The notes under the pieces were generated by a model. It worked only from the letters and a program-made list of their open reading frames with translations, did no database searches and was not told the origin of the DNA. Made by a program: the position numbers and the translations under genes. This document shows, piece after piece, positions 3,001 through 33,168 of a stretch of DNA of 33,581 nucleotides. Location of the stretch: positions 1-33,581 of the forward strand of contig CAZWKM010000002.1 of the NCBI GenBank assembly GCA_964634165.1, in the 5' to 3' direction. This DNA comes from an uncultured Pirellulales bacterium. Lineage in GTDB: Bacteria > Planctomycetota > Phycisphaerae > Sedimentisphaerales > Anaerobacaceae. Numbering within the stretch: the first letter of the stretch is position 1; each line of letters starts with the position of its first letter.

Positions 3001-6000
3001 TGCCACGTCCGTCCTTCAGAGTCGCTCGTTGAATTCGCTTATTACGCAGGCCGGAACGGCCCATAATCTTGTCGTAGATTGAGAAAATAGGCCCAGACAA
3101 AATGACAAATCGCTTTGGTCGGAAAGCGGGTGTTTTGGCGTAGGTGGTGTCCCACCACACCTTGGCCTCTCCACCCAAAACCTTCTCATATTTCTCGTGC
3201 AGTTCGTTCGTGCTTACTGCGTGCGTCTCAGCTCTGACGTTACGCAAGTGAAGAGCATTAGAAGAAGTCGCCAGTGGATTTTCGTTTTTCTGGACAGCGT
3301 AGATATGGCCACTTTTCTTATTCTTATAGAAACCTCTGGACGCAAAGCGAGTTGCTTGGTCAAAATTGATTTTGTGAACTGCTACATCGCCTTCAAGTTC
3401 ATACAGCTTTGTTTGGGCGCCTGATGCTTCGTCTGTATGGACAACGGTTGGTTCACCGACCACCTTGAGATTAGTAGCGTGAATTTGCTCTACGCCGAAA
3501 TCAAACGCTCCCGTCTCCTTCGCTCGCGCTATTATCTCCTGGTAATTGCCGTAGAATATCTCGAAGATTCCGTTCTGTATATCGACCGGCAAAGCCATAA
3601 TACGATTAAGGAAACGGTCAACGTTCTCTGTATTTTGTCGAGCCAAATCGCCTTCTTCGTTAAGCAATCCCATTTGCTCGATTACAGCACGGCCCACTCC
3701 TTGATTCGCGTATTCCCCCATCATTATACCGTTATAGGTTGCCGTCAAAGCGGCCACGCCATACGAGTCCGTTAAGTCCTCGACGTTAAACATACTGCCG
3801 CCAAGAGCACTCCGCTCGCCTTTAGTAATCGCGCCCAGGGCAGCCAGCCGCCTCGACACAGCATTCGTAAGCCGCATTTGCCCCGCTAGGTTGAGTGTCA
3901 CCGGCCTGATGATAGGAGCTGTCGCCTGAAACGACCTATGAACCCTGCCAAAAGATTGCATCTGCGTATCCGCTGACCACGATAACTGAAAGGCATAGAA
4001 AACCCTACGCTGCTGATTTTTTTTGGTCAAGTCGGCGTGCAAGCTGATGCCTGTCGAGCCAGCCCCCGAAATGATAGCTATCCGTTTCTTGCCCTGTTGG
4101 AATAATTCGGTCTCGTGTTCATTGAGTTGTGTTTGCTTAACTCCCTTGATTTTCCTGCGAACATATTTACCGTTCTCCATCCTGCGAGTACGGCCCGTGA
4201 TTTCAGCCACCCTGCCGGCCCCGAAATGTTCTATCAAAGCGTCAAGTGGGTTGGTAGGCAAACTCATATCTGCTATTTGCGCCAACAGTTCTTCTTGTTT
4301 GCGGAGATTTTGCCTATTTATAACCGGATTGCCCGCACCGTCAAGAATCCGTTCTCTGCGAGTTCTGCCAGTCTGTGGGTCAGTTACTTCCTCATACTGT
4401 TCAAGCGGAAAGTGTCTTTTCACCAAATCAACAAGCATTTGCCTTGGCGAAAACTCCATCTCATCAAGCGATACACCCTCCTCCAAAGCATCATTTACTA
4501 ATCGTTTCGTCACGGTTTCGTTGGTATTGTAAAGGTTGACAACGGCCGACCGGCCTTCCGACAAATCCTTTTCGATGGCCTTGACAACCGATGGTAGCTC
4601 GTACCCCATCATCAATTGCAAAAAGAACCGCTGCTGCGCAGAGTAGAAACTACTAAAATGTCCCAACGCCCTCCGACTGGCGTTTCTGTTGGCTTCCTCA
4701 AAAGCTTTGTTCAGTTCACCCCAAAAGTTCGCAATTTCATCAAATTGCTTTGTCTCGTTACCAGAGAGTCCGTATTCCAACGGTGCGTATTCCACGCCTT
4801 CGTAGCTGATAGTTCTGGCAACTACCTTGCCGAGCAGTTTGAGTTCACGCGATAACATTTCCATATTAGCCACGCCACCCTGCTGCATAGCATTGGCAAA
4901 AGCTATAAAGTTTGGAAACGCGGCCCTTTCCCCCCAAAGTCCTAACCGTTCAAGGGGGATAAGATGTCGTACTTCAGATGCACCTGTCGCGGACACATAA
5001 AGTATTCGGGCTTTCGGGAATAACCTTTGCAGTTCAATCCCCATATTACCTTGTTGCGTACCTTGCCCCGCAGTGTATCCGCCCCCTTGTGTTGTAGCGG
5101 CCGCGTTCTTCATCTTGTGGGTCTCATCAAAAGCTATCACGCCATCAAAGTCGGGGCCAAGCCAGTCGCATAATTGCTTAAATCGCTCCTTGCCTTTCGT
5201 GTAGCCCTTTGCCAGCATACCATAGGTGGTAAAGAAAACTCCCTCGTCTGCTGTTATGTTGGCGTTCTTATGAAACGGTTTCTGGTGAATCAGCTTTAAG
5301 GGTACACCGACGCCATCTTTATCTCGTTGAGCGTCCGCAACAAGCTGGTGACTGGCTGATATATGAACTGCTTTTTTCCGGCCTTGCTTCAAATTGTCAA
5401 GTATGACAGCGTAAATCTCGCGGCCTTTACCCAAACCAGTACCATCCCCTATCCAAAATCCCGCCCTTTTGCCGTCCGGCAGTATTGTCTGATGGGTTTG
5501 GCCAGCATATACGACAGCTTCTAATTGAACGTCCGACACCCTGCCTTCCGTGACGATTTCCTTTGGTAAATGATGTTTGTATGTAATATCGGGTGGCGTC
5601 ACAGACGACATTACCGTGGATTCGACAATATCGGCGGGATGCAGCTGCGAACCTTTCACGGTTGCCTTCTGAACTTGATATGTGCTATAAGGCGTCCCCT
5701 CCTCCACTTCGGAGGGCGTGGTTTCTTTTACGCTTTCTTCCGATTGCGTTTCTTCAATAACGGCGTCACTGTCCAGTCCCCAATCCGAATGTTTCTGCCG
5801 AATATTTTGATATATCTTTGCCAGATAAGGCCGAAACTTCTCGTCCATCCCCTCCATTATTCGTGCAGACCAGTCCGCGAAAGACCTTATCCCCGCTTCT
5901 GCGTACATCGCTCCGAGCTTAACGCCATCAAGCAGTAGGGCAGGGTCTATACCAGAGTACAATCCTTTTTTGCCGGTGAGGGTGTCGTTGATTTTCTTTT

Positions 6001-9000
6001 TGAGGCGATTTATTTCGGCTTGCTTTTCAGGAGAGAGGTGCTCGGTGAGCTTTTTCTTTACTCGTCTATTACCAAGCTCGCTAACTCCGCCGCCCACAGG
6101 GGGAGTTCCTTCTGACTCAACGGCAGGGATATTTCTTCTCTGTCCACTATCCGGTCCACCAGTTGGTCGAGGTTCCCCCGGCTCTTCCACAGGTCGTACC
6201 ACTCTTGGTCCGTGATTGGCACTTGTGTCGGCGGTTCCAGGTTCCCGTGTGGGTGAAGTACCACCTCCACCAGTTGCACCAACGGATTCCCCTGTCTTTG
6301 CGGCTCCCCCAACTCGGCCAGCAACTTCGCCGCCCTCGTCTTGGCTCGCTGTGCGTATCCGCTCATTTACATTCTCCTTAGATAAAGGCCCTAAAACTTT
6401 CAGAGCTTCCTGCGGCGACAGGTCTGCTCCTGTAACAATTTGGCCTTCACTTTTGGTCGCACCATCATTATCTATTATAACGATTTGGTTGCCAAAAGTT
6501 GTGCCAAATTTACCATAATCCTTGCCGGACATACCGATATTGGCCCGAACATTGTATTTTTCTTCGATTTTTCCCCACCAATCACGGAAATTGGCCCTGT
6601 CAAGGGCCATTCCTTGTCCAACAATAGCCACTAATCGCCCACCTTTTTTCAGGCGAAACAGCGCTTGCTCAACGTGCCTTGCACCGAATTTCGTTTTATG
6701 GGCTTTCACTCTCCCGCCAGTCGCCGAGAATGGAGGATTCATCACGATAACATCATACTCCTTGCCGGGTTCGAGTAGGTTATCGAGTTGCTCGGCATTA
6801 ACATTGTACGCCTTGAAGCCCAGCGACTCTAAAAGACTACGCCTTCGAGCATCAATCTCGTTTGTTTCCACCCAGGCGCCCGCTAATCGCATCAGGGTAG
6901 CGATGTTGCCTGTCCCCGCACTTGGCTCGAGTGCCGACATCCCCGGCTTGATAGCGGCTGCCCTGACAGCCACATACGCTTCTGCCGGCGGCGTACTGAA
7001 TTGCTGTAATTCGACTTGCATCTCATCCCGGCGATTCTGCCGTGGCATCCTGTCAGTGATAGCCAATAATTGTGCAAGAGCACTTTCCGGCCTTTTGAGG
7101 TCTATCCCTGACTCAGTGATATGTTTGTTCATCCCGGCTTCGACAGCATCGTAGGTATCACGAGCGTTGCCGGCCGCCGCTCCGTAAACTTCTCTGGCAA
7201 GAGCATTGACAACAGCATTGGTTATTTTGGTTTCAGGATTGTCCCGCAGCAACGCCGCTACCTTATTGACTACCTGCTCATACTGCTCGCTTTTGGCTTT
7301 GACGCCCTTGTTTTCCCCCTCTGCGGCGGGCTTGGCCTTCAAGCCCTTGCTTTTCGGAAAAGCGATTTCTTCTGTGCCGAACGCCATCTCGACAGCTTTC
7401 TTGACCGCATCCTCATAATCCCATTGCTCTATCCCAACCGGGCCTCGCTGACGGCGCAAGCCGCCTTTCTCGATTTGGACGTAGAAGCCATTCCCGTCGT
7501 TTTTGGCTACAACTGTGTATCGTTCCCCTTCCGATGTCGTGGCTTGCCCTGTGTTGTCCAGAGTAGTCTCGAAATTTTGCCTCGAAATCTTTACACCCTT
7601 GCTTTTCGGCGCCGCCGTTGCCTTTCTTCTGGCCAATTCCTCGACCGCCATCCTGTATGTCTCGGCCATCTCCGGCTCATCTGCCGTAACATCGGCGAGT
7701 ATCTGCAAGTGCTCGGTCTCAGCATCTCTTATCTTCGCGGCAATCTCCTCTGGCCGCTCTGCTACCGCCTCGGCAAGAGAAGTCGCGCCAGCGGGCGTCT
7801 CTGGGCCTGGAATCGGCTCTGTGGCGGGCGGTTGGCCTATCTCTCTCGCTTCGGCTTCCAGCCTTGCTTTCTCATCGTCCCGTAAACGTACTTGTCCAGG
7901 CGCTTGCCCTTCAATCCCTTCCGCCGCCCCTCCCGCAGCAATTTCCTGTGCAGCTCTTTCGGCATTTTCTTTCTCCTTCAACCGTTGCTCTTCATAGGTC
8001 AAAAGTCCAAGAGGGTGAACATTCATCTCTCGGCGCCTTCGCTCCAATTCCTGTTTGGCGACAACATCACCCTGCTCGGCCTTTTCTCTCAATTCAGCAA
8101 AATCGGCCTTCTCGGCTGTCCTTTGCTGAAACATATATTCCTCTTGGACCCGCTCAATCACCCTCTCGGTTTGCATCAACTGTTCTTGATTGTTCAACGC
8201 ATCCTTGAGCAATCCGGCGAACTTGCTGCGTTCCTCTGCAGACCAGCCGGCGATACCCAGTTCCTTGAGGTCTTTACGGCTCGGTTCCTTTTTCTCCGCT
8301 ATCCGGGCAGAAACACCTGGCGAGAGAGCCGCTACTTGCATAGCCCCTTCCGGCGTCAGGGCGACATCCTTAAACTTCCCCTTGTCCTGAATGTCTAAGC
8401 GTCCGGGATATGCCTTGCCCTGCATTTTCGCGGCTGCTCGGTTTGCAAGGCTAACCGTCGCACCACCGCCAAAACCTACAAGCGACATTGCTCCGGCAAC
8501 AACAAACTCTTGCGCCCGCTGGTCGATGAATCCTATAACACCATCCGGCCCGATTATGGGCTTGTCGTAAACCAACTTCGCAGTTACCGCTTGCCACGAA
8601 CCTTGCGTAATCTCCTCTGCTCCCTCGCCAACGAAGCCGAGCAGGACGTCTTTCGTCAAAGCAGCAGCACCTCGCTTTGCGACATACTCTCCCGCTTCTT
8701 TTGTGACTTTACGGCGTAGCGCCCGCCAACCAATCTTGCCGAGCTTCAGAGCTAACGCTGTCTGTGCAAACTCAAGAATTGCAGCTACTGACCCATAAAT
8801 GACTTTGGCTTGCTGGGCTTGCTCCTCGGTCGCCCCATCCTGAATTGCCTGCCGGTATGCCTCCTGCCCCTCGGCCTCGAACATAATCGCCATTGCTATC
8901 TGTGGCTGGCCTCCCGCTATAGCTACGCCACTGGCTATCATTACAGGCATTGACGGAGCAATCGCACTTGACAATTTGGTCGGGCTGGTAATTAAATCCC

Positions 9001-9337
9001 AGAAATTCTTAGGCTGTTCGTTTTGCCATTCCGGGTGACGTGCAATCAGGTCGTCAACTTTTTCTCCGAATTCCTCTCCGGGCAGCGTCCAGTTCATCCC
9101 CGCTGTTACATTTATCTCTTTCCTCATAGACTCAGGCGGCCCGACATACTCGAATAGGCCGGAAACGGCTTTTGCTAAGTTCAATCCCCCAATCCGCCAC
9201 GCATCTATGTTGGATTTCCAAAACCCCTTCTTCGCCTTCTCTTTTGGAGTGTATGGCTCTATTTGTTGGACAAGGTCAAGCAGCGATACTCTCTGAGGCG
9301 GCTCGACTTGCTCTGCTATGTCGGCAAGAAGGCCCAT
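1..9337 (-). CDS. Giant polyvalent virion-module protein, partial (more than 3,112 codons; 3' end beyond the window). Contains a methyltransferase, an Sbno-type helicase, an HExxH module and a long unassigned C-terminal region.
   Basis: Absent from the supplied ORF track because it has no stop in the window. The minus frame with codon first bases at coordinates = 1 mod 3 opens at ATG 9337-9335. An in-frame TAA lies just upstream at 9355-9353. The ATG overlaps the TAA of the upstream gene as TAATG. I hand-translated about 35 of the 156 sequence lines spread over 1-9337; all read as ordinary protein with no stop. The track lists no ORF in this frame and nothing above 102 aa on the minus strand in 1-9336, which requires this frame to stay open throughout. 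N-terminus: MGLLADIAEQVEPPQRVSLLDLVQQIEPYTPK. Last in-window residues: ...FLNPRIQILGQVLEKITDPDPK. Confidence 0.85.
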   Translation of the reverse strand, partial: MGLLADIAEQVEPPQRVSLLDLVQQIEPYTPKEKAKKGFWKSNIDAWRIGGLNLAKAVSGLFEYVGPPESMRKEINVTAGMNWTLPGEEFGEKVDDLIARHPEWQNEQPKNFWDLITSPTKLSSAIAPSMPVMIASGVAIAGGQPQIAMAIMFEAEGQEAYRQAIQDGATEEQAQQAKVIYGSVAAILEFAQTALALKLGKIGWRALRRKVTKEAGEYVAKRGAAALTKDVLLGFVGEGAEEITQGSWQAVTAKLVYDKPIIGPDGVIGFIDQRAQEFVVAGAMSLVGFGGGATVSLANRAAAKMQGKAYPGRLDIQDKGKFKDVALTPEGAMQVAALSPGVSARIAEKKEPSRKDLKELGIAGWSAEERSKFAGLLKDALNNQEQLMQTERVIERVQEEYMFQQRTAEKADFAELREKAEQGDVVAKQELERRRREMNVHPLGLLTYEEQRLKEKENAERAAQEIAAGGAAEGIEGQAPGQVRLRDDEKARLEAEAREIGQPPATEPIPGPETPAGATSLAEAVAERPEEIAAKIRDAETEHLQILADVTADEPEMAETYRMAVEELARRKATAAPKSKGVKISRQNFETTLDNTGQATTSEGERYTVVAKNDGNGFYVQIEKGGLRRQRGPVGIEQWDYEDAVKKAVEMAFGTEEIAFPKSKGLKAKPAAEGENKGVKAKSEQYEQVVNKVAALLRDNPETKITNAVVNALAREVYGAAAGNARDTYDAVEAGMNKHITESGIDLKRPESALAQLLAITDRMPRQNRRDEMQVELQQFSTPPAEAYVAVRAAAIKPGMSALEPSAGTGNIATLMRLAGAWVETNEIDARRRSLLESLGFKAYNVNAEQLDNLLEPGKEYDVIVMNPPFSATGGRVKAHKTKFGARHVEQALFRLKKGGRLVAIVGQGMALDRANFRDWWGKIEEKYNVRANIGMSGKDYGKFGTTFGNQIVIIDNDGATKSEGQIVTGADLSPQEALKVLGPLSKENVNERIRTASQDEGGEVAGRVGGAAKTGESVGATGGGGTSPTREPGTADTSANHGPRVVRPVEEPGEPRPTGGPDSGQRRNIPAVESEGTPPVGGGVSELGNRRVKKKLTEHLSPEKQAEINRLKKKINDTLTGKKGLYSGIDPALLLDGVKLGAMYAEAGIRSFADWSARIMEGMDEKFRPYLAKIYQNIRQKHSDWGLDSDAVIEETQSEESVKETTPSEVEEGTPYSTYQVQKATVKGSQLHPADIVESTVMSSVTPPDITYKHHLPKEIVTEGRVSDVQLEAVVYAGQTHQTILPDGKRAGFWIGDGTGLGKGREIYAVILDNLKQGRKKAVHISASHQLVADAQRDKDGVGVPLKLIHQKPFHKNANITADEGVFFTTYGMLAKGYTKGKERFKQLCDWLGPDFDGVIAFDETHKMKNAAATTQGGGYTAGQGTQQGNMGIELQRLFPKARILYVSATGASEVRHLIPLERLGLWGERAAFPNFIAFANAMQQGGVANMEMLSRELKLLGKVVARTISYEGVEYAPLEYGLSGNETKQFDEIANFWGELNKAFEEANRNASRRALGHFSSFYSAQQRFFLQLMMGYELPSVVKAIEKDLSEGRSAVVNLYNTNETVTKRLVNDALEEGVSLDEMEFSPRQMLVDLVKRHFPLEQYEEVTDPQTGRTRRERILDGAGNPVINRQNLRKQEELLAQIADMSLPTNPLDALIEHFGAGRVAEITGRTRRMENGKYVRRKIKGVKQTQLNEHETELFQQGKKRIAIISGAGSTGISLHADLTKKNQQRRVFYAFQLSWSADTQMQSFGRVHRSFQATAPIIRPVTLNLAGQMRLTNAVSRRLAALGAITKGERSALGGSMFNVEDLTDSYGVAALTATYNGIMMGEYANQGVGRAVIEQMGLLNEEGDLARQNTENVDRFLNRIMALPVDIQNGIFEIFYGNYQEIIARAKETGAFDFGVEQIHATNLKVVGEPTVVHTDEASGAQTKLYELEGDVAVHKINFDQATRFASRGFYKNKKSGHIYAVQKNENPLATSSNALHLRNVRAETHAVSTNELHEKYEKVLGGEAKVWWDTTYAKTPAFRPKRFVILSGPIFSIYDKIMGRSGLRNKRIQRATLKDGRGIVGLGLKTTEVAQIRQRLGIGNKLVELTASETIALVKDGAVLELDNGWQLTESAISGDKVIELLPSGTRDYASALQSYGFLDEVIRYKRRWFAIGRAAESVVGRLLRDHKVVRDITSADTSALNIHKGARPRITEESEEIAASYSSEPPETKKGKSLLDKLRRDTKQKGKKKVGLRSIVDFVNEQVKALMLVGKTQTTRRSPAHFEPGPHTIRTKSGTWQLNFHEAGHALSALIGDENPAWFAHISKMLIELTGPDTMASAQTPEEGMAELVRLYITDPGKIPDALKAQFESVLKELRPELLAGLRDAHRAYVFQKSRPVMEQLQTQVHDKPKGINTPEQVSNMAWGLLQNAIGDSMIVHRVHRRTFNAIAAQNRLGFLDVFGVYGVAKSWINKDYRSQLKLARDWKKHIEDTPADTDAARNDLLRVPQAFDAAINGAKGEGDGIVVKATGKGFERFSKQELSLLREVVTLPENLNPGHGNSMRLYPKSLNTIKHEVGLKDWEDFCTYGQARASLERAKKKGHEYAGRTEGLTPADLEKFIREQESSHPEWDGYFKEVNQFMNHLLLVPLLAGEKTPGEFVTIIKAWEDYWPLQRQIEGKPGGAGGITSAKSSGIYSAFGSALPLKTLDDSVRFRTRRAFDSYYWHRFAWSMVRMAEEANKRKDMPLDARMLLNRLMIPLRLEPKKVAKLTEHEMQVVIADYLNKQQADQAGLKVEELDEPTQPDDVAVCQNHTDIWRMKKPNAVRVLSLWGEDGNRHFFQVPDPYIFRMYARQRIPGDVTKHITRVLMGMTRPWKRTKTQKPAFGVRNIPRDITTGQLLAEGGPQAYIPAYNLALGVLNRITGKSKASKVATELMSKRLDELMKDSHRTVVQSFGNMLAQDIAPKNWTKLSTLEKIEEIPGQLVALGLKPLDIKNWILGSRYASALTEELPREGAYEYAEKKSESESRRELAYDKATGYFAQRGSNPVMAAIIAAAGFLNPRIQILGQVLEKITDPDPK
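2318..2332 (-). other. HEAGH (HExxH) zincin-like metallopeptidase motif within the giant ORF
   Basis: Hand translation gives TWQLNFHEAGHALSALIGDENPAW (first His is residue ~2336). An EEGMAELVRLY segment about 45 aa downstream could supply a third ligand Glu. This is a motif only; no fold-level evidence is available to me. Confidence 0.45.
3847..5590 (-). other. Strawberry-notch (Sbno)-type superfamily-2 helicase module within the giant ORF
   Basis: Hand translation gives FWIGDGTGLGKGREI (5417-5449), IAFDETHKMKN (DETH = 5117-5128), IAIISGAGSTGISLHAD (4031-4081) and LSWSADTQMQSFGRVHRSFQ (QSFGRVHRS = 3932-3958). From memory these match the diagnostic Sbno motifs GDGxGxGKGR, DEcHkaKN, StGiSLhAD and WSAd..Q.fGRtHRsnQ. 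Borders are approximate. Confidence 0.8.
6058..6366 (-). CDS. Candidate nested (overprinted) 102-aa ORF in an alternative frame of the giant gene
   Basis: This ORF is in the supplied track. Its ATG at 6366-6364 is preceded by AAGGAG (6379-6374) with a 7-nt spacer. Its translation (…ITDQEWYDLWKSRGNLDQLVDRIVDREEISLPLSQKELPLWAAELASLVIDE) is compositionally protein-like, unlike the other four off-frame minus ORFs inside the giant gene. It overlaps exactly the low-complexity Gly/Pro/Thr linker between the methyltransferase and helicase modules. Confidence 0.3.
   Translation of the reverse strand: MSGYAQRAKTRAAKLLAELGEPQRQGNPLVQLVEVVLHPHGNLEPPTQVPITDQEWYDLWKSRGNLDQLVDRIVDREEISLPLSQKELPLWAAELASLVIDE
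6458..7030 (-). other. N6-adenine-type (amino) DNA methyltransferase domain within the giant ORF
   Basis: Hand translation gives motif I LEPSAGTGNIATLM (EPSAGTGN = 6905-6928, residue ~804). Motif IV is DVIVMNPPFSA (NPPF = 6728-6739, residue ~867). This is followed by HVEQALFRLKKGGRLVAIVGQG. The order motif I then motif IV with ~55-aa spacing is typical of gamma-class amino-methyltransferases. Domain borders are approximate. Confidence 0.8.
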
Positions 9338-10410
9338 TAAATGACCCCCAATTTATGCAAGGCGTTGGCGATTACCTGTTCGTTTCCACTGTCAACGATG
9401 TATTGCCATTCCGCCGCCGTCTGCGCGCCGTATTCCTTGCGTACCCAATTGGCGTCGAAGTCTCCTGCCTTAACCTGCTCGATAATATGTTTGGCACGTT
9501 CGTCCAGTTTTTTCAAATCCACCTCGGCCACAACCTCTCGCTTTGCCGGCTTGACGGTTTTGTCGGTTTCAAGTTTGCTCAGGTGGCCTCCGCCTTCACC
9601 GCCGCCCCTCCCTTGGCCTCCGCCTTCACCGCCGGCCCTCATCCTCGCATATCTACCCATTATATTTGCAACCTGAGCTTCAACGGCCGCGTAGTCCGTT
9701 ATGTCAATGCCTTCCATAGTTTGCTTGAACATTGCTTTTAATGTATCAGTGTAGAGCTTGCCATACTCTGGAAAGCTAATCTCCCCCGGCAGTTCTTTGA
9801 CATTGCCCTTATCATCCATAATTCCCCTTATACCGGTTACGGGGTCGGTTACTATTCGGCTATTATATATCTCTTGCGGCTTCGGTTCATCGTGATAGAC
9901 CTGCGAGGGGGTAATAGAATGGAACTGCTGCTGTAACTGTCTTTCCGCTTCCTCTCCCTGCTCTGGCGTCCAATCCCCCTTCGACACCTGCTCTCGTACC
10001 CAAGCAATTGCGTCTTGAAGTTTACCCATCTTGTCTTTTTGTTGCTGAGTGTATTCCCACTTAAAATTGTCCCGTAAGATTTTCTGCTGCTGCAAGGCCG
10101 CTTCAAGGGCACGTCCGGGGGCCTCCTCATACTCTCGCATCCGAAACGCACGGTCGGCTTCCCTTCCTTCCTGCAAGCCTTTTGCTTCCTCGGTCCTCTG
10201 GTCAACGGCGCGGTTGTAGTAGCTCAGTCTCCCCTGCGCAAGTTCTTTCCGGTCAATCCTTTCCCATTCCCGCATACGCAATTGAGCGTTAAGCGCAGCC
10301 ATTCGTATGGCTCTGTCGATGTCTCGCTCGCGTCTCTGGCCTCGACCCGCCGTGTATGCAACGCCGCCCATTGCTTCTGCAGACGGCGCGTGTTTGACTG
10401 TAATAGGCAT
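9337..10410 (-). CDS. Coiled-coil-rich virion protein (internal/ejection-protein candidate), 357 aa
   Basis: Track ORF. TAATG overlaps with both neighbours. The sequence is rich in charged heptad-like segments (…RMREWERIDRKELAQGRL…) and has a GGEGGGQGRGGGEGGG linker. Its position between the tail fiber and the giant protein parallels the podovirus internal-protein block. Function is inferred from position only. Confidence 0.5.
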   Translation of the reverse strand: MPITVKHAPSAEAMGGVAYTAGRGQRRERDIDRAIRMAALNAQLRMREWERIDRKELAQGRLSYYNRAVDQRTEEAKGLQEGREADRAFRMREYEEAPGRALEAALQQQKILRDNFKWEYTQQQKDKMGKLQDAIAWVREQVSKGDWTPEQGEEAERQLQQQFHSITPSQVYHDEPKPQEIYNSRIVTDPVTGIRGIMDDKGNVKELPGEISFPEYGKLYTDTLKAMFKQTMEGIDITDYAAVEAQVANIMGRYARMRAGGEGGGQGRGGGEGGGHLSKLETDKTVKPAKREVVAEVDLKKLDERAKHIIEQVKAGDFDANWVRKEYGAQTAAEWQYIVDSGNEQVIANALHKLGVI

Positions 10411-11036
10411 TATGCGTTCCCTAATTGATTCATCAGTTGGACGTACAAGCTCTCGCTCGGATAATCATCGGTACGCCTCTCCATAAAGTCGAGCATCTCC
10501 CTGCTCATACCCGTGCTGTAACCAAGCTGTTCCCGGCGAAGTTGCTCATTCAATAAAGCCATCGACCGGGCCTGCGCCTCTGCGTTTTGGGATTGAACCG
10601 CAGGGGCGATTGTGGTCGAATACAGACCCCTGTTGACCATTGCCTGATTCGCCGCCGCCCCCGACCTCGCGTAACCTCTCTCAACATCGGCTCTGGCGGC
10701 TCCGCCAAGACCCTCTAACTGGCCCATCGCATTGCTGTATCGAGTTTCATAGCGGCCAAGAATATCCTCATAACGCTCCTCGTTTGCGGCCTTTGCCTCG
10801 TCATAGGCGGTCTGATATTCAGTCGTGAGGGTATTTTTCTTGGCTTCCATGATAGCTTGCTGGACTTGTGATAACTTCTGCTGGCTTACTGCTTGTTGAT
10901 AATTGTAGAAGCGGCGGGTAGCCTGATTATCACGCCCTACGTCCCATCCACTGAGAGTTGGCGCACCTCCGTATGAACGGTTCAGTGCATCAATGTAGTC
11001 TTGGACACTGCTGTATTTTGAGTAATCTTGCGCCAT
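10410..11036 (-). CDS. Virion protein (internal-protein candidate), 208 aa
   Basis: Track ORF. AAGGAG lies 7 nt upstream of ATG 11036. Its stop overlaps the next start as TAATG at 10410. The sequence is Gln/Ala-rich and looks helical. I recognise no motif. Confidence 0.5.
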   Translation of the reverse strand: MAQDYSKYSSVQDYIDALNRSYGGAPTLSGWDVGRDNQATRRFYNYQQAVSQQKLSQVQQAIMEAKKNTLTTEYQTAYDEAKAANEERYEDILGRYETRYSNAMGQLEGLGGAARADVERGYARSGAAANQAMVNRGLYSTTIAPAVQSQNAEAQARSMALLNEQLRREQLGYSTGMSREMLDFMERRTDDYPSESLYVQLMNQLGNA

Positions 11037-25802: not shown

Positions 25803-27698
25803 TCACCACAATTTTGTCTCCTTGAGCTTTTGTTCGTATTCTCTACGTCGAGCGGCATAGCAATTTTCGGGTACCGTTTCGCTCACTTCGGGTTGGATAT
25901 TGCCCAAAAGCTCAAGGGCTTTATTCGCAAGCGCATCGGCAATTACTCTGTCCCCGTGATTGTCCCCTGCCCCGGATGGGTCAACTGAGTTTGCCGCCGC
26001 GCTGTGTTCGATACTATTGCGAGTCGTGAAGATATAAGAAAGACATTCCTGATTAGCTTCGCTACTGCGCTGAATGAACGTCCTTCCTTTCAATGCCCGG
26101 CGATACGCTCCCAAAACGGATTTCTTCTCCTCTGTATTGAGAAAACAGCCCGGTATGTCGGATACTTTTTTGGCAAGCGTCTTTTCGTTGCGGCGATAGT
26201 AGATATTCCTATAACCCAATTTGATTACCGTGTCTCCGAAGATTCTACCCATCCCGGCTCCGTCCCAAATCATATATGCACTATTGAAATACTTGCACAA
26301 AGCAATGCACAGTTTTGCATATGCCTCTGGCATTATCCACGGGTTGGCGTACTCTGCTATCTTCTCTCCCGTCTTCAGATTGACAAACGTGGCAGCCGAG
26401 TTGCTTGCGCCCGTGCCGGCAGAAATGTCTGCACCGCACCCGACCGACAAGTCCTCTGGAAAATGACCATAAGCATCTGGATTTATCCATAATCTCAAAT
26501 GGCCGTTCTCGCCCGACACAAAATCTAACGGGTCAAGCGTGTCTTCATCGTATTCGAGAACTCCCTCTGAGTAGGGCGGCCTCACGTTTTCCTTCTCGAT
26601 TGCCTGAATCATATCCCCGTCAAAATACTGAAAGTCCGAGGCGAACGGGTCCATATCAAGCTCTTGCGCTATCTCCATCGGGTGAACCGCTCGGTCACAT
26701 TCGTTATCGTACCAGGGCGAACGCAACTTGCCGTCAAGTCTGAACGGGTACTCTTCCGGAAACACATAGCGAATCCCATTGACGACTACCGTCCCCTTGA
26801 AGTCCTTGTCGTGAATGACAAGTTTGTTCTCCCGGGAATAGTACAACCCTCTCGATTTGAGCGGGTGCAGCGACCAATGCAGTACCAACTTGCGAATCTT
26901 GCCTAAGCTCAACCGATAAAAGGCCGTCCCCGCCCCCTGGTGAGTCGAGTTAAACAGACGGCAGTGGGTCACGTCTCGCGTAGCCCGCAGCATACCGTCG
27001 CCGTCAGGAACCGCCGCAAATTCGTCCGGCAACATCGCAGTACAACGACCGCCTCTGGCCGCATCGCTGGTCGTTGTACATCCGCCAATAGTCGAACCGT
27101 TATCCAAATTGACCAAATTCAAGTGTACTTTGTTGTATCGAGGCTGCAAAAACTTCGGCAAGTGCTCTATCAAAAACATCGCCTTCCAAAACAACGCATC
27201 CGGGTCATCACTCTTGTCAACCAGATTTTCATTACGAGAAATCATCCTGAATGCTGTGTATGGGCGAAAAAGCCAGAACCAAACGAACACCGAAAGGTAC
27301 ATCCACGAGGCCCCCATATCCCTTGACTTCTCCGTCAACTCATCGAAACCAATCTCTATTGCGTCTCGTATCTCGTCAAAAGACACGTCCTGATACAGGT
27401 AAGTGATGAAGGGGATAACAGTCGATGCCGGCGTGAGTCGTGGGTCATACGTCATCGCAAACGTATTGATGAAAAACAAAAGGTCTCGCGAGCACATCCT
27501 CCATAATTGCTCCTGAACCTCTTTGTTGCCCGCCGCCTCGCGAATACATTTCGACCTGAACCTGATATTGCCCGCAAGCGTCTTATACCCCGGCCACTCT
27601 CGGCAGCAACGGTCATAAAACGGATACCGGCTCCGCAGCTTCTTCGCTCTGGTCGAGTATTCGGTCAAGCAAGTCAAGATTTGCTCTACCGTCATCAT
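25803..27698 (-). CDS. terL: Terminase large subunit, 631 aa
   Basis: Track ORF. It has a Walker-A-like LTEKSRDMGASW and a Walker B TAMLPDEFAAV. The length and its position before the portal fit a large terminase. Confidence 0.88.
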   Translation of the reverse strand: MMTVEQILTCLTEYSTRAKKLRSRYPFYDRCCREWPGYKTLAGNIRFRSKCIREAAGNKEVQEQLWRMCSRDLLFFINTFAMTYDPRLTPASTVIPFITYLYQDVSFDEIRDAIEIGFDELTEKSRDMGASWMYLSVFVWFWLFRPYTAFRMISRNENLVDKSDDPDALFWKAMFLIEHLPKFLQPRYNKVHLNLVNLDNGSTIGGCTTTSDAARGGRCTAMLPDEFAAVPDGDGMLRATRDVTHCRLFNSTHQGAGTAFYRLSLGKIRKLVLHWSLHPLKSRGLYYSRENKLVIHDKDFKGTVVVNGIRYVFPEEYPFRLDGKLRSPWYDNECDRAVHPMEIAQELDMDPFASDFQYFDGDMIQAIEKENVRPPYSEGVLEYDEDTLDPLDFVSGENGHLRLWINPDAYGHFPEDLSVGCGADISAGTGASNSAATFVNLKTGEKIAEYANPWIMPEAYAKLCIALCKYFNSAYMIWDGAGMGRIFGDTVIKLGYRNIYYRRNEKTLAKKVSDIPGCFLNTEEKKSVLGAYRRALKGRTFIQRSSEANQECLSYIFTTRNSIEHSAAANSVDPSGAGDNHGDRVIADALANKALELLGNIQPEVSETVPENCYAARRREYEQKLKETKLW

Positions 27699-28281
27699 TG
27701 AACTTTGTTAGATTCTCCACCTGTGATTTGCTTGGTATGATTCGAGGATAAACCTTCGTGAAAAAATCCACCTTGTTGTCATTGCTGTTCTGGATAAACT
27801 TCAAATGGGCATACGCGCCCGCACTCGGCGCATCCGCCGGCTTCACATCCCGTATCGCTATGTTGTTGTATATCCACGTCAAGTCCCGTATCGGGTCAAT
27901 CTCGACATCTTCCCCAAACTCCGACCGGTCCCGCAAAAAAGCATCTTCAGCCTTCGCCGCCCGCTCCTTTTCCTCCTTCACCCCCGGCGGCTCCGGTAAC
28001 GATATGGGCTCACCCTTCGACTTCCGTAGCAAATATGTGTCTATCCGCTTCTCCGCTATCCGTGTAGCAAGCCTATGGTCAATATAGCCCGTGTCATCCG
28101 TACACTCCACCCTGTAATATGACCGCAATCGCGTAAACGCCGTCCACACCTCCTGCTCACGATACGTCCGCTTCTTTATGTCGTATCCGTAATCCCGCGC
28201 AGCGATAAACTTCCCTACTCCACGGTCTGTTAAATCCTGTTCCGTCAAATCTGCCATACTAAAAGTAATCGGCCAATTCAA
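27613..28281 (-). CDS. Terminase small subunit candidate, 222 aa
   Basis: Track ORF. TTG 28281 has GAGGAG 5 nt upstream. It is the first gene of the late operon and overlaps terL by 86 nt. The assignment rests on position and size only. Confidence 0.45.
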   Translation of the reverse strand: MNWPITFSMADLTEQDLTDRGVGKFIAARDYGYDIKKRTYREQEVWTAFTRLRSYYRVECTDDTGYIDHRLATRIAEKRIDTYLLRKSKGEPISLPEPPGVKEEKERAAKAEDAFLRDRSEFGEDVEIDPIRDLTWIYNNIAIRDVKPADAPSAGAYAHLKFIQNSNDNKVDFFTKVYPRIIPSKSQVENLTKFNDDGRANLDLLDRILDQSEEAAEPVSVL

Positions 28282-28335
28282 AAATCTCCTCTATCGTCCG
28301 CAACACTGCCAGTATCAAGCAAAGCAAACCAATCC

Positions 28336-28375
28336 GTCACTTCTCGTCACTTCTCGTCACTTTCCGTGACTTACC
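28336..28375. repeat. Four tandem 10-bp repeats (GTCACTTCTC x2, GTCACTTTCC, GTGACTTACC) in the divergent control region
   Basis: Read directly from the sequence. The period equals one helical turn. The array lies 55 bp from the terS-candidate start (28281) and 21 bp from the HTH gene start (28396). Confidence 0.9.
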
Positions 28376-28395
28376 GGTTCATCGTCTCTGCTTAA

Positions 28396-28602
28396 TTGGT
28401 CGAAAAGACCGATATGGAAAGACATCTGATAGACATCAGGACATTGTCATATCGGTCGCGGCTACCAGTCGCTTGGCTTAATCGAGAAGCAACCGCCAAA
28501 AGAATACCGTCTTTGAAAGTTGGGGATGGGTTCTTCTTCGATTATGACGCTGTCGAAAAAGCCCTTCTCGAGCGTGCCCAGAAAAATCTCACCAATGAAT
28601 AA
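28396..28602 (+). CDS. Excisionase/AlpA-family helix-turn-helix DNA-binding protein, 62-68 aa
   Basis: Track ORF with a TTG start at 28396; the alternative ATG is at 28414. The segment …RLPVAWLNREATAKRIPSLKVGDGFFFDYDAVEKALLE fits the HTH_17 pattern (…IP..K.G.…F….L..WL). Confidence 0.6.
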   Translation: MVEKTDMERHLIDIRTLSYRSRLPVAWLNREATAKRIPSLKVGDGFFFDYDAVEKALLERAQKNLTNE

Positions 28603-28774
28603 TCTTACGGAGGCGGTTCCGCTTCAGACGGGGAAAGTGATGAGCTGCACCCCGCAACCAGTTGACAGGTACAACTTGCCTATCTTAACCGTGCGAGACC
28701 ATTTGAAATCCGGTGTCGCCGGGGGAGAGGTGAGTAAGGTACTTGCGGGCGCGAAGGGGGCGGGGGCATGGTAA
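28595..28774 (+). CDS. Possible small protein, 59 aa
   Basis: ATG 28595 overlaps the end of the HTH gene by 8 nt and is in the frame of track ORF 28520..28774. A terminator-like hairpin follows. The composition is unremarkable and I recognise no motif. Confidence 0.3.
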   Translation: MNNLTEAVPLQTGKVMSCTPQPVDRYNLPILTVRDHLKSGVAGGEVSKVLAGAKGAGAW

Positions 28775-28783
28775 AGATTCTGA

Positions 28784-28811
28784 GGAAGTAGGAGTCCCAC
28801 TTTCTTTTTTT
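28784..28811 (+). terminator. Intrinsic terminator candidate
   Basis: The left arm GGAAGU(A)GG and right arm CCACUUUC form 8 bp with one bulge and one G-U pair around an AGUC loop. The stem is followed immediately by seven U (28805-28811). Confidence 0.5.
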
Positions 28812-28870
28812 ATGCTCACCCGCCTACCTCGGACGATGACTGGTTGCACCTGCTCACGCACCCTGCCTTG

Positions 28871-29467
28871 ACGCTAACGCTATTATAACGCTGTTAAACC
28901 CCTATTCCGGGCCTATTCTGGCTGGGATGGTGCGACACACACCAACCCAAACGCCCTTGCCCCGCCTGCCCGCCGAGCCGAGCACCAGCACCACAAGCCG
29001 CCGTTAAAATGTAACGTCCACCCCGCCGACATCCTGCCGCCGCCCACCCATCACGAGTCAGCCCTTCCCCCAGAAGTTTTGCATTGCGGTCGCGGTGTCT
29101 CGCGGTCGCCGCTCTGTCGCAGCGGCTGGCAAGTGAGCCGATGAGCAAGCCAGTGAGCCAGTGAACTTTGAGCACAGCCCGGCACAAGGCCGCAAGGGCG
29201 GCACACGCCGCACGGGCGGCACAAGGTCGAAGGGTCTGTCCTATACTCTATACAGAGCACTACTGCGGTAATTAGGCCATAACGCCGGTTTCTCCGGTTC
29301 TTTTGCCTTTCATCCACGACAGTGGGCGTGGTTGCGGGCGTGCGGCGCGGGTGCGGCGCGGTTGCCGTCCAGTGGGCGTGGTACGGCGGGCAGGGCCGCG
29401 AGACGCTACGCTGTACCGTACTAACAGCAACAAGGCGGTGAATAGACCAAGAATAGGCAGAAATAGC
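28871..29467. repeat. ORF-free GC-rich island densely packed with short direct, tandem and inverted repeats
   Basis: Repeats read directly from the sequence:
- AACGCT x3 (28871-28892).
- CCTATTC x2 (28901-07, 28912-18), mirrored by GAATAGA / GAATAGG / AAATAGC (29440-46, 29451-57, 29461-67).
- An 11-nt perfect inverted pair: CCTGCCCGCCG (28965-75) and CGGCGGGCAGG (29384-94).
- CCAGTGA x2 (29150-64).
- CGCA(A/C)GGGCGGCACA x2 (29191-205, 29209-23).
- CCGGTT(T)CT tandem (29285-301).
- CAGTGGGCGTGGT x2 (29320-32, 29370-82).
- GTGCGGCGCGG tandem (29340-61). Confidence 0.85.
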
Positions 29468-29528
29468 GGTTTATTAGCGTACAAACCCTGTTTCCCTGCT
29501 CTTTTCAGCACCGATTACAGCCGTTTGT

Positions 29529-29588
29529 AAAAAAAAATTAAAAATTTTGTATTTTTCTCTTGACACGTTTGCCGATGAGACGTATATT
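29529..29588 (+). promoter_or_regulatory. Near-consensus sigma70 promoter with A/T-rich UP-like element
   Basis: TTGACA (29560-65), a 17-nt spacer and TATATT (29583-88). Upstream lies AAAAAAAATTAAAAATTTTGTATTTTT (29529-56). Confidence 0.7.
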
Positions 29589-29642
29589 GGGATTATGGAT
29601 ACCGATGAACCCGGACATAGAAAGTAGTGAAAGGAGCTAAAA

Positions 29643-29693
29643 ATGGAAATCATTGAACTAACAGCCGAATGGTCTGAAAGGGTAAAAAAATGA
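29643..29693 (+). CDS. 16-codon leader ORF (MEIIELTAEWSERVKK) translationally coupled to the next gene
   Basis: AGGAG lies 6 nt upstream of the ATG. Its TGA (29691-93) overlaps ATG 29690 of the 210-aa gene as ATGA. The first 10 codons are paralogous to the start of the gene at 30417 (MEMIIEVTAEW). Confidence 0.45.
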   Translation: MEIIELTAEWSERVKK

Positions 29694-31793: not shown

Positions 31794-32435
31794 ATGCAGC
31801 TTTACGAACAATATCGACCAAAAACGTGGGACGAAGTGATAGCACAGGACAAGGCAAAGGCGCAGATTGAGCATCTGCGTCAACGCGGATTAGCAGGCCG
31901 GGCCTACTGGATAGCAGGTGCGTCCGGGACGGGCAAGACAACCATCGCCAAACTGTTGGCTGGTGAGATAGCAGACCCGGACTTCGTAGATGAGCTTGAC
32001 GCAACGAACCTGACGCCCAACCGACTACGACACATCGAGCAGGAGATGATAACGTATGGCTGGGGTAAGAAGGGTAGGGCCTACATCATAAACGAGGCGC
32101 ACGGGCTGAGCAAGGCCGCCATACGGCAACTGCTGGTGTTGTTAGAAAGGATACCATCGCACGTTATGGTTATCTTCACCACGACCAGCGAAGGGCAGGA
32201 GAGCTTGTTCGAGGACAACATCGATTCGCACCCATTGTTGAGCCGGTGTCAGGAAATACAGCTATCCCGGCGAGACCTTGCCAAGCCGTTCGCCGAGCGA
32301 GCCAAGCAAATAGCACAAGCCGAGAACCTTGACGGCAGGCCGGAAGCCGAGTATCTCAAACTGGTACGCAGACACAAAAACAATCTACGGGCCGTCTTGC
32401 AAGTGATAGAAGCGGGAGGTATGAACAATGAATAA
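31794..32435 (+). CDS. Clamp-loader-clade AAA+ ATPase (DnaX/RFC-like), short form, ~213 aa
   Basis: Track ORF 31782..32435. ATG 31794 has GAGGAG 4 nt upstream. Motifs: YEQYRPKTWDEVIAQ (the RFC/DnaX box), Walker A GASGTGKTT, Walker B YIINEAHGLS (Asn instead of Asp; codon aac read directly), and SRC-like LLSRCQ. Confidence 0.8.
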   Translation: MQLYEQYRPKTWDEVIAQDKAKAQIEHLRQRGLAGRAYWIAGASGTGKTTIAKLLAGEIADPDFVDELDATNLTPNRLRHIEQEMITYGWGKKGRAYIINEAHGLSKAAIRQLLVLLERIPSHVMVIFTTTSEGQESLFEDNIDSHPLLSRCQEIQLSRRDLAKPFAERAKQIAQAENLDGRPEAEYLKLVRRHKNNLRAVLQVIEAGGMNNE

Positions 32436-33168
32436 AACAACGAATAAAAGCGCAATACTTTACGCAAGGTTCAGCCCCCGGCCCAACGCCCCGGACTGCG
32501 ATAGTGTCGAGCGTCAAATCTGGGATATGCGGCGGTGGGCCAAGCGGAACAAGTACACGATTGTCGCCGAGTATAGCGACAAGGCCCTGTCCGGGTCAGA
32601 CGCCGACCGGCCCGGCCTGTGGGACGCCATATACTCTCTCAAGCGGGGCTATGTGCTTATGGTCAGGACGTGGGACAGACTTGCGAGAGACAGTTACTTA
32701 GGTGAGGTAATCCAGCAGCAGTGCAAGAAGAAGGGTTGCCGGGTCCTCGCTATCCAGCAGACCGAATCGAGCAAGGATGGGCCTGAATCGAAGCTCATCA
32801 GGACAATCCTTCTGGCGTTGGCCGAGTACCAGCGACAAATCATCCGGGCACGCACACGAGCCGCAATGCGTCGCCATCAATCCGAAGGCAGGCGGATGAG
32901 CCATCGACTGCCTTACGGTTGGAGGCCGGACCCGAAAGATGATGCGCGGATGCTGCCGAATCCATACGAACAAGAGGTAATCAAGCGGGTGATGTTGCTG
33001 CATAAGCACGATTTCGGCCATCGGGCAATCGCCCGGCAATTAGCCATCGAGGGTTACGAACCCCGGAAGATTGAGAAGAGATGGAAGAACGGCAGGATTG
33101 GCTACAAGGCCGGAAAGTGGACTCACAAGTTAGTGGGAGCAATTCTAAGACGTGCCGAAAGCACATAA
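32428..33168 (+). CDS. Serine recombinase (resolvase catalytic domain plus partial 'recombinase' domain), 246 aa
   Basis: Track ORF. Motifs: AILYARFSPRP…VERQ (catalytic Ser motif), VRTWDRLARD, and a C-terminal PYGWRP…EQEVIKRVMLLH…GHRAIARQLAIEGY…KWTHKLVGAILRR. There is no zinc-ribbon or coiled-coil region. It overlaps the AAA+ gene by 8 nt. Confidence 0.85.
   Translation: MNKTTNKSAILYARFSPRPNAPDCDSVERQIWDMRRWAKRNKYTIVAEYSDKALSGSDADRPGLWDAIYSLKRGYVLMVRTWDRLARDSYLGEVIQQQCKKKGCRVLAIQQTESSKDGPESKLIRTILLALAEYQRQIIRARTRAAMRRHQSEGRRMSHRLPYGWRPDPKDDARMLPNPYEQEVIKRVMLLHKHDFGHRAIARQLAIEGYEPRKIEKRWKNGRIGYKAGKWTHKLVGAILRRAEST

Follow-up and report, generated by a model that had tools for sequence, protein, structure and literature searches.

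A GC-rich intergenic island of a marine-sediment phage as a possible attachment and early-control region with an expanded spacer

The DNA considered here (hereafter the window) is a stretch of 33,581 nucleotides (nt) of contig CAZWKM010000002.1, and its subject is a GC-rich, repeat-laden island at positions 28812–29528 to which a first-pass annotation of the sequence had drawn attention. The window is a phage contig without a close match among deposited phages in similarity searches run in near and distant mode, and the host of the phage probably belongs to Planctomycetota. The minus strand carries a structural block that leads from a terS-like gene (27613–28281) through the genes of TerL, which belongs to the T4-type N-terminal domain family, and of the portal protein into a giant open frame. 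This frame spans 2–9352, exceeds 3117 amino acids (aa), and leaves the window at base 1. The early genes begin at 29690 on the plus strand and include those of a clamp-loader-like AAA+ protein and of a 246-aa serine recombinase (32428–33168). The island lies in the divergent intergenic region between the late (minus) and the early (plus) block, and identical copies of the island region are present in three other assemblies. The comparison with related phages and prophages presented below suggests, tentatively, that this region combines phage attachment and early gene control.

The island is devoid of genes, as the first-pass annotation had held, and its statement that coding density is close to 100% elsewhere in the window stands as well. 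Over ~28690–29580 the six-frame codon-usage log-odds, scored with a model trained on the window's own genes, do not exceed 0.04 bits per codon, against 0.2–0.5 in the flanking genes, and the open reading frames (ORFs) seen there are shadow ORFs. The ORF-free zone is larger than had been claimed; it extends over 28603–29689, or over 28775–29689 if an 84-aa ORF at 28520–28774 is real. One source (L001) calls this ORF a gene, probably wrongly: it runs into the conserved element described below, shows no coding signal, and is not kept in relatives. The deviant composition was also borne out. The GC content of 28812–29528 is 0.605 against 0.510 for the window, which makes it the top 717-nt stretch, ~3.5 standard deviations above the mean, and the count of 49 G+C among the 60 nt of 29341–29400 is exact. 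The reported switch from a C-rich to a G-rich plus strand is correct on its left side, with a skew of −0.26 to −0.38 over 28800–29100, but the skew is close to zero over 29100–29340 and reaches +0.31 only in 29340–29400. What had been read as a strand switch corresponds to an A-poor polarity, on the minus strand over 28920–29240 and on the plus strand over 29311–29400. The AT-rich core proposed for the island lies in a neighbourhood of 46% GC, and the truly AT-rich tract, 29528–29558, belongs to the promoter on the right.

The short repeats listed in the first-pass annotation are present, among them two copies of CAGTGGGCGTGGT at a spacing of 50 nt and a tandem GTGCGGCGCGG, together with an 18-nt unit in 2.4 copies (Table 1). 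Direct repeats are enriched in the island (13 pairs of 9-mers against 2.3 expected), a level equalled in 3 of 500 block-wise dinucleotide shuffles. The boxes said to bracket the island are found at both of its ends in 10–11-nt phase, and three of the six exact copies of GAATAGG in the 33.6-kb window lie inside it. The perfect 11-nt inverted pair nested between them (28965–28975 and 29384–29394) does exist, but an inverted match of at least that length occurs in 145 of 500 composition-matched shuffles, and inverted repeats overall are not enriched in the island relative to such shuffles.

The first base of the island, 28812, is the base directly 3′ of the T-run (28805–28811) that closes a non-coding element of ~110 nt at 28702–28811, which we call the prophage-end element. 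It consists, in this order, of TTTGAAAT, GAGGT(A/G)AGTAAGG, a variable hairpin, GGGGCGGGGGnnTGGTAAAGATTCTG, GTAGGAGTCCC and the T-run. Relatives found through TerL (44–72% identity in the main group, L004–L018, and ~31–34% in L019–L022) are without the island but have the stretch just to its left in common with the window. Among related contigs, more than 60 carry the element almost unchanged, and several of these are Planctomycetota metagenome-assembled genomes. A pattern derived from it retrieved ~50 true relatives from metagenomes, the element was also present in 8 of 11 genome-scan matches, and a hidden Markov model of its core, run with nhmmer, gave 77 matches at E ≤ 1e-3, weak ones and duplicate contigs included, with the window matching at 28725–28798. 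The bin titles of the genome-scan carriers name mostly Planctomycetota, Phycisphaerae, Sedimentisphaerales and Pirellulales, and single bins WWE3, Nitrospiraceae and Victivallales; titles of this kind point to Planctomycetota as the hosts. RNAalifold yielded no consensus RNA structure for the element with either 5 or 24 sequences.

Several further observations concern the element itself. With its nearly invariant core GGGGCGGGGGnnTGGTAAAGATTCTG it is found in the window, L004, L010, L030, L043–L119 (~50 loci) and L232–L242, and it is better conserved than the adjacent proteins. A prophage/host junction or a recombinase gene lies no more than a few hundred nt away from it, and a motif GGAGTCCC stands 5′ or 3′ of the core, depending on the locus. 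In L089, a prophage ridden with insertion sequences, two inverted copies of the element (original coordinates 10866–10940 on the minus strand and 6878–6926 on the plus strand) flank an early module with a serine recombinase; the other long loci have a single copy.

The sequences that follow the element in relatives, i.e., in the slot that the island fills in the window, are of several sorts. In one set the element is followed by a conserved arm of ~130 nt (a hairpin and two AAATGGCG repeats), then by the 3′ portion of a tRNA gene, and then by unrelated host-like genes, some of them on contigs of 77–127 kb. The tRNA portions differ among loci (Met-CAU-like, others read as Arg-UCU- or Lys-UUU-like; tRNA model 29.4 bits), and these loci are prophage/host junctions. 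Other relatives have a recombinase gene in the slot, either a 220-aa tyrosine recombinase gene ~60 nt past the element (L072, L107) or a gene for a 247-aa homologue of the window's serine recombinase ~150–210 nt past it (L044, L103, L094). The tyrosine and serine cases have a 35-nt flank in front of the recombinase gene in common, which argues that the two kinds of recombinase are exchanged as cassettes in the slot. The serine enzymes encoded in the slot are uniformly ~243–252 aa long, far below the size of classical serine integrases.

A layout like that of the window is found in a sister lineage, in L075/L086, where the element is followed by ~470 non-coding nt, the promoter, ~100 nt more, and the early genes, with the recombinase gene further on. 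L075/L086 and L117/L007 are the same at all but 4 of 330 positions and then diverge completely, right after a 12+2+12 imperfect palindrome, AGTGCTAATGCC(GG/AG)GGCATTAACGCT, in the equivalent intergenic region. One sediment run contains both the L075-type and the L117-type form, with depths of ~32 and ~10; the two forms could represent a pair of phage attachment site (attP) and attR, or the insertion of a filler. That the L117 tail is the far end of an invertible segment was ruled out; the tail sequence is found nowhere else in L075, and there is therefore no local inversion. Within the first 330 nt past the element, L050 carries a ~215-nt GC-rich, repeat-rich insert between direct copies of GGGGGTTGCGGACAGTCCGCAACGTG, inside the attachment arm, and L057 has a different insert at the same position.

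The phased boxes recur in the relatives. L004 has AATAGGCC three times in 11-nt phase (box region AAATAGGCCATAAACGCCGGTT), L017 has GAATAGGGCC and AAATAGCGGG with an inverted CCCTATTT ahead of them, and L008 has two AATAG boxes; inverted CCTATT boxes are also present in L004 and L017. At the right end of the region a module of box, CAAACCCT and promoter is variously common to L004, L017, L008 and L075, and a promoter with TTGACA and GCCGATG occurs in the window, L075 and L008. Conservation of the repeats among related genomes, by which the first-pass annotation had proposed to judge the island, holds for the phased boxes of L004, L017 and L008 but not for the 18-nt repeats, which are absent from same-backbone relatives.

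What lies between the boxes varies in length and sequence. The box-to-box span of L017 is ~90 nt without filler, and the fillers measure ~50 nt in L004, ~300 nt in L008, ~350 nt in L013, at least 420 nt in L010 and ~490 nt in the window. Those of the window, L004, L008, L010 and L013 cannot be aligned with each other. No homologue of the window core, at the level of DNA or translated, was found in INPHARED, the IMG/VR loci or the metagenome loci, and blastn and tblastx against 240 fetched loci gave nothing significant; the 9-mers that the island has in common with the slots of relatives are chance matches only, probably in coding regions. All fillers are strongly A-poor on one strand (3–13% A), and long open frames are to be expected in them from composition alone, as every stop codon calls for an A on one strand and a T on the opposite one. 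The filler of L008 has a GC content of 0.59 in a genome of 0.45. Fillers that are G/T-rich on the A-poor strand and GC-enriched relative to their own genomes are seen between conserved box clusters at 7130–7500 of L008, 1–466 of L010, 7500–7750 of L013 and 100–150 of L004. Other identities proposed for such sequences were rejected. The fillers are not genes of Cys-rich membrane proteins, as L008 has an ORF of 153 aa but no frame is common to the relatives; the island is not a decayed integrase gene, the best match being 12 of 35 residues to the L072 tyrosine recombinase; and a likeness between the L237 spacer and the window core, noticed by eye, is below every blastn threshold.

The window core contains decayed copies of motifs from its own neighbourhood. 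The segment 29127–29145 is a degenerate copy of the −35 region of the early promoter (29561–29579), 29270–29290 (AATTAGGCCATAACGCCGGTT) is a second partial copy of the sequence that forms the box region AAATAGGCCATAAACGCCGGTT in L004, and GGGCGTGGT, which occurs twice in the G-rich block, echoes the core of the conserved element. Such copies indicate that the core grew by local duplication. It seems unlikely to us that the fillers make up a functional class in their own right, i.e., orientation-dependent insulators or nuclease-attenuating tracts that would protect both the end of the prophage and the beginning of the late operon and in which composition, but not sequence, would be selected.

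Two proteins encoded nearby are candidates for acting on the region. The small orf68 (28396/28414–28602) has a weakly positive codon-usage score, and its AlphaFold2 (AF2) model, with a mean predicted local distance difference test score (pLDDT) of 86, has the β-α-α-β-β-α topology of a winged helix. Foldseek E values are weak (0.1–1), as is usual for a protein of 62 residues; the compact matches are BldC, RacA, the DNA-binding domain of pSK1 Par (root-mean-square deviation, rmsd, 1.9), mycobacteriophage Xis and SoxR. No sequence family for orf68 was found in Pfam, among the sequences of the PDB, or in a set of 5.8 billion proteins. MerR/Xis-type winged-helix proteins bind arrays of phased direct repeats, and the four CGTCACTTCT repeats just 5′ of orf68 and the GAATAGG boxes are candidate target arrays. 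The serine recombinase matches Pfam Resolvase at 4.5e-28 and a PHROG integrase family at 7e-39, where the alignment is to the N-terminal part of serine integrases, and its catalytic domain is closest to those of Gin and the gamma-delta and Tn3 resolvases.

We estimate the probability at roughly 0.45, i.e., slightly below even odds, that the island is the attP and early-regulatory region of a temperate phage, in which the boxes do the work and the GC-rich core is a spacer, expanded and specific to the lineage; most likely, the island is no new kind of element. It would represent the expanded middle of a ~1.1-kb non-coding region that extends from the prophage-end element (28702–28811) to the early promoter (29560–29588), a slot which in this phage family is both the point where the genome is cut and joined to host DNA and the seat of recombinase genes. 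The working parts would be the left flank, the phased GAATAGG/CCTATTC boxes, the palindrome at 28923–28949 and the right flank up to the promoter. These parts may serve as binding sites for the recombinase, the small winged-helix protein or a regulator, and jointly they would form the arms of attP and the control region upstream of the early operon. By analogy to the palindrome of L075, that at 28923–28949 is a candidate crossover or operator site. The core of ~490 nt (~28950–29435) would be filler built by local duplications, probably with no sequence-specific role beyond spacing, and its strand-skewed composition could keep transcription of the late and early operons, and of host DNA in a lysogen, apart. 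The position of the island, the pattern of its conservation, its composition and repeat statistics, and the lack of coding and RNA signals are observations; the attP function in this very phage is inferred from synteny, and proteins may bind the boxes and the core may act as an insulator.

The attachment role was among the possibilities raised in the first-pass annotation, and the comparative evidence favours it: the slot after the prophage-end element matches the prophage/host junction of related integrated copies, the sister lineage (L075 against L117) has a recombination-like breakpoint in the equivalent region, and a recombinase gene is present in the same phage. A number of points weigh on the other side. 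Among the contigs of four runs there is no junction, split contig, alternative joint or loose end for this phage inside the island, and the phage is held only by assembled contigs of one marine-sediment study. No tRNA or tRNA-like segment was detected in the island. The recombinase gene is 2.9 kb off, its product has the size of a resolvase or invertase, and its role as an integrase is putative. The palindrome at 28923–28949 is not significant alone (such palindromes have a background of 0.42 per kb) and has no second copy or half-site partner in the window. The breakpoint between L075 and L117 may mark an inserted filler instead of a junction with host DNA; the tail of L117 is C/A-rich like the filler of the window. 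Finally, GC enrichment and skew recur in the fillers of relatives, which hints at selection on composition that a neutral filler would leave unexplained and which allows for a role of the insulator type.

Compared with attP regions of the lambda/P2/L5 type, the island region is likewise non-coding, located beside a recombination module, provided with repeats in 10–11-nt phase and adjoined by the gene of a predicted Xis-like winged-helix protein; integration next to tRNA genes is known among phages of that type, and relatives of the window phage have tRNA-fragment junctions in the same slot. In contrast to those regions, the window has no tyrosine integrase and no host-shared core was identified, and the island is several times longer and consists mostly of GC-rich filler absent from relatives. 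Small serine recombinases that act as integrases are reported, in the abstract of PMC3816273, for the Ralstonia filamentous phages RSM and RSS. The window phage resembles these in carrying a resolvase-sized enzyme of 246 aa whose homologues lie beside the prophage end in relatives, but here the gene is distant from the island. If the attachment and early-control reading is true, the island marks the site of recombination with the host and the control region of the early operon of an uncultured phage, and it is the place to seek attB and the site on which a serine recombinase of unusually small size acts. In itself the sequence of the island is probably of limited general interest; more may be gained from the wider pattern, in which a near-invariant element, exchanged recombinase cassettes and skewed fillers help to delimit prophages in Planctomycetota, a phylum with almost no phage genetics. 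The pattern also prompts one to ask if a phage spacer can be under selection for its base composition and nothing else.

Other explanations of the island have to be weighed against this reading. Sites at which Rho loads on RNA (rut sites) are C-rich and G-poor, and the skewed blocks might form a two-way Rho-type transcription insulator, in which C-rich, G-poor RNA entering from the left (plus strand, 28812–29075) and from the right (minus strand, 29400–29311) would load Rho, and read-through between the two operons and host DNA would be halted. The island offers 90–155-nt stretches with a C:G ratio of ~2 on RNA from either side (71:33 on the plus strand over 28920–29075 and 45:25 on the minus strand over 29311–29400), the plus-strand RNA of the left block is no more stably folded than shuffled sequences (z of +0.4 to +1.2), and the fillers of L008, L010, L013 and L004 are C/A-rich and U-poor for leftward transcripts; judged by composition, C-rich, G-poor and poorly structured RNA of at least ~80 nt is available, as Rho-dependent terminators require. 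However, the argument is one from composition, which could be a by-product of mutation, the trait that recurs in relatives is A-poverty of one strand and not C-richness as such, the middle of the island (29100–29340) has no skew, L017 and L075 do without such a block, and the dependence of the host on Rho is an assumption, so that we regard an insulator of this type as an outside chance. Somewhat lower still is the likelihood that the core is host or other foreign DNA, captured at the attachment site by imprecise excision or illegitimate recombination and then reshaped by slippage into a functionless tract. Its position in the attachment slot, its GC content ~10–25 points over that of the phage, the lack of a homologue in relatives and the presence of unrelated inserts at the same place there, such as that of L050 with its duplicated 26-mer, would all fit; yet the core contains no tRNA fragment or host-gene remnant, parts of it are clearly copied from the phage's own motifs, and the island sequence has no match in any sequencing run outside the phage's own study.

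A replication origin is about as doubtful as captured DNA. In such an origin the 18-nt repeats would be iterons, 29240–29310 the unwinding region and the skew minimum the point of initiation, and indeed the repeat adjoins the core of 46% GC, the cumulative GC skew of the window has its minimum at 28500–29500, and the adjacent operon encodes the clamp-loader-like AAA+ protein. The switch of gene orientation at the same place, however, explains the skew minimum by itself, 2.4 repeat copies fall short of the three or more expected of iterons next to an AT-rich region, the island includes no truly AT-rich tract, and the repeats are not retained in same-backbone relatives. Scans with Pfam and PHROGs recognised no initiator, helicase, primase or ParA/ParB gene in the window; the AAA+ protein is the sole recognisable replication candidate of the early block, in which four proteins have no family in either collection. 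The arrays of 10–11-bp or 17–22-bp direct repeats in iteron origins and parC centromeres do recall the 10–11-nt boxes and the 18-nt tandem unit, and the winged helix of orf68 superposes on the DNA-binding domain of pSK1 Par. The island differs from these in having 2–3 copies per cluster, no gene of a partner ATPase or initiator in the window, and an 18-nt unit that is not conserved. As for the partition site (parS/parC) suggested in the first-pass annotation, no repeat array beside parA/parB or parM/parR is present in the window, and no partition family was found in a Pfam scan of 20 window proteins or in a PHROGs scan of the ten nearest the island, the window being an incomplete genome. A packaging or end-protecting region, with oriented G/T-rich GGCTGT-like motifs near terS acting as a terminase recognition series or as nuclease-attenuating, Chi-like sites, appears less probable than an origin. 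The island is upstream of terS, the TerL is of the T4-type N-terminal family, and the motif (T)GGCTGT(G) is 5–7 fold enriched in the pooled fillers (in 4 or 5 of 6), but the null is a mononucleotide shuffle only, a weak control, and the window filler is poorer in the motif and has it mostly in the opposite orientation.

Inversion of the island and a structured RNA, both raised in the first-pass annotation, found no support and are the least credible of these explanations. A segment with the inverted box sets or the 11-nt pair as its ends, flipped by the serine recombinase, would accord with the inverted arrangement of the boxes at the island ends and with the fact that the recombinase's best solved relatives are the Gin invertase and the gamma-delta and Tn3 resolvases, features that recall the Hin/Gin/Cin segments. 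Unlike those segments, the island has no paired dyad-symmetric crossover sites: its inverted repeats are at the level of chance, the boxes are without the structure of a dyad-symmetric site of ~26 bp, and the palindrome half-site has no second copy. A single orientation and no strand-switch joints were seen in the contigs of four runs, and contigs can hide rare forms. A structured non-coding RNA would fit a GC-rich, ORF-free region with a terminator-like hairpin at 29284–29308, but the island matches no Rfam family at gathering thresholds, a cut-off relaxed to E ≤ 10 adds nothing but noise, and its fold is unremarkable on both strands (z of −1.97 on the plus and −0.77 on the minus strand over its full length; 150-nt windows range from +1.9 to −2.4). 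There is no homologue to align and hence no covariation, and the sequence occurs in no RNA run.

Table 1. Features of the intergenic region between the late and early blocks, in window coordinates
Feature	Position	Strand	Basis or remark
Four 10-nt phased repeats CGTCACTTCT	28334–28376		Between orf68 and the start codon of the terS-like gene; possible operator or packaging-recognition array
orf68, 62 aa from ATG, predicted small winged-helix protein of MerR/Xis/BldC/Par type	28414–28602	+	Weak coding signal, AF2 model
Conserved non-coding prophage-end element, left boundary of the island	28702–28811	+	nhmmer, motif pattern
Left flank	28812–28900		GCCTTGA..GCTAT (28865–28883) resembles flank GCCTTGAtcttgttgGCTAT of 'group A' relatives
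TAACGCTATTA x2	28875–28896		Repeat search, left flank
Two GAATAGG boxes (CCTATTC on +, at 28901 and 28912), 11-nt phase	28901–28918	-	Orientation opposite to that of the right-hand boxes
Imperfect palindrome TGGGATGGTGCG-aca-CACACCAACCCA	28923–28949		10 of 12 arm positions pair; candidate crossover/operator site
C-rich, T-poor block	28950–29075	+	28920–29075: C 71, G 33, skew −0.37; + strand RNA expected to fold poorly
T-poor block of short tandem duplications	29076–29235		AGCCAGTG x2.1 (29148–29164), 18-nt unit x2.4 (29180–29223)
Lower-GC core: CCTATAC and TCTATAC (inverted, box-like), then AATTAGGCCATAACGCCGGTT	29240–29290		Composition, motif scan
Terminator-like hairpin GCCGGtttctCCGGT, then TCTTTTGCCT	29284–29308	+	Count of such sites not above shuffles
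G-rich, A-poor block: G 45, C 25, A 7 of 90, GC 0.78	29311–29400	+	Holds CAGTGGGCGTGGT x2, GTGCGGCGCGG x2.4
Three direct boxes GAATAGA (29440), GAATAGG (29451), AAATAG (29461), 10–11-nt phase	29440–29466	+	Conserved in L004, L017, L008
CAAACCCT motif	29482–29489	+	~70 nt 5′ of −35 in the window, ~50 nt in L075; looser CAAACgCCCT in L004
AT-rich tract and early promoter, right boundary	29528–29588	+	Near-consensus TTGACA-17-TATATT at 29560–29588, GCCGATGA in spacer

Two further routes to relatives were followed. The first early gene, p210, led to no relatives in IMG/VR. A search with its protein gave 16 homologues, and the three homologue contigs that were inspected show other contexts or end just upstream, with the island in none of them. 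At 1851–5549 of L230, an NCBI assembly, a p210 homologue is located beside genes with a Csf1 and a weak Csf3 Pfam match, families of type IV CRISPR-Cas systems. A scan of IMG/VR with the box pattern was too unspecific and was set aside; it returned unrelated arrays in L191/L215 and in L211. The latter, an unrelated viral contig found only via AATAGGC in its units, starts (1–800) with ~25 tandem 11-nt units, GGCGAGGAATA / GGCGGGTGAAT, and has a second array of GAATGAC-type units, each of the two arrays being followed by a shared sequence of ~40 nt.

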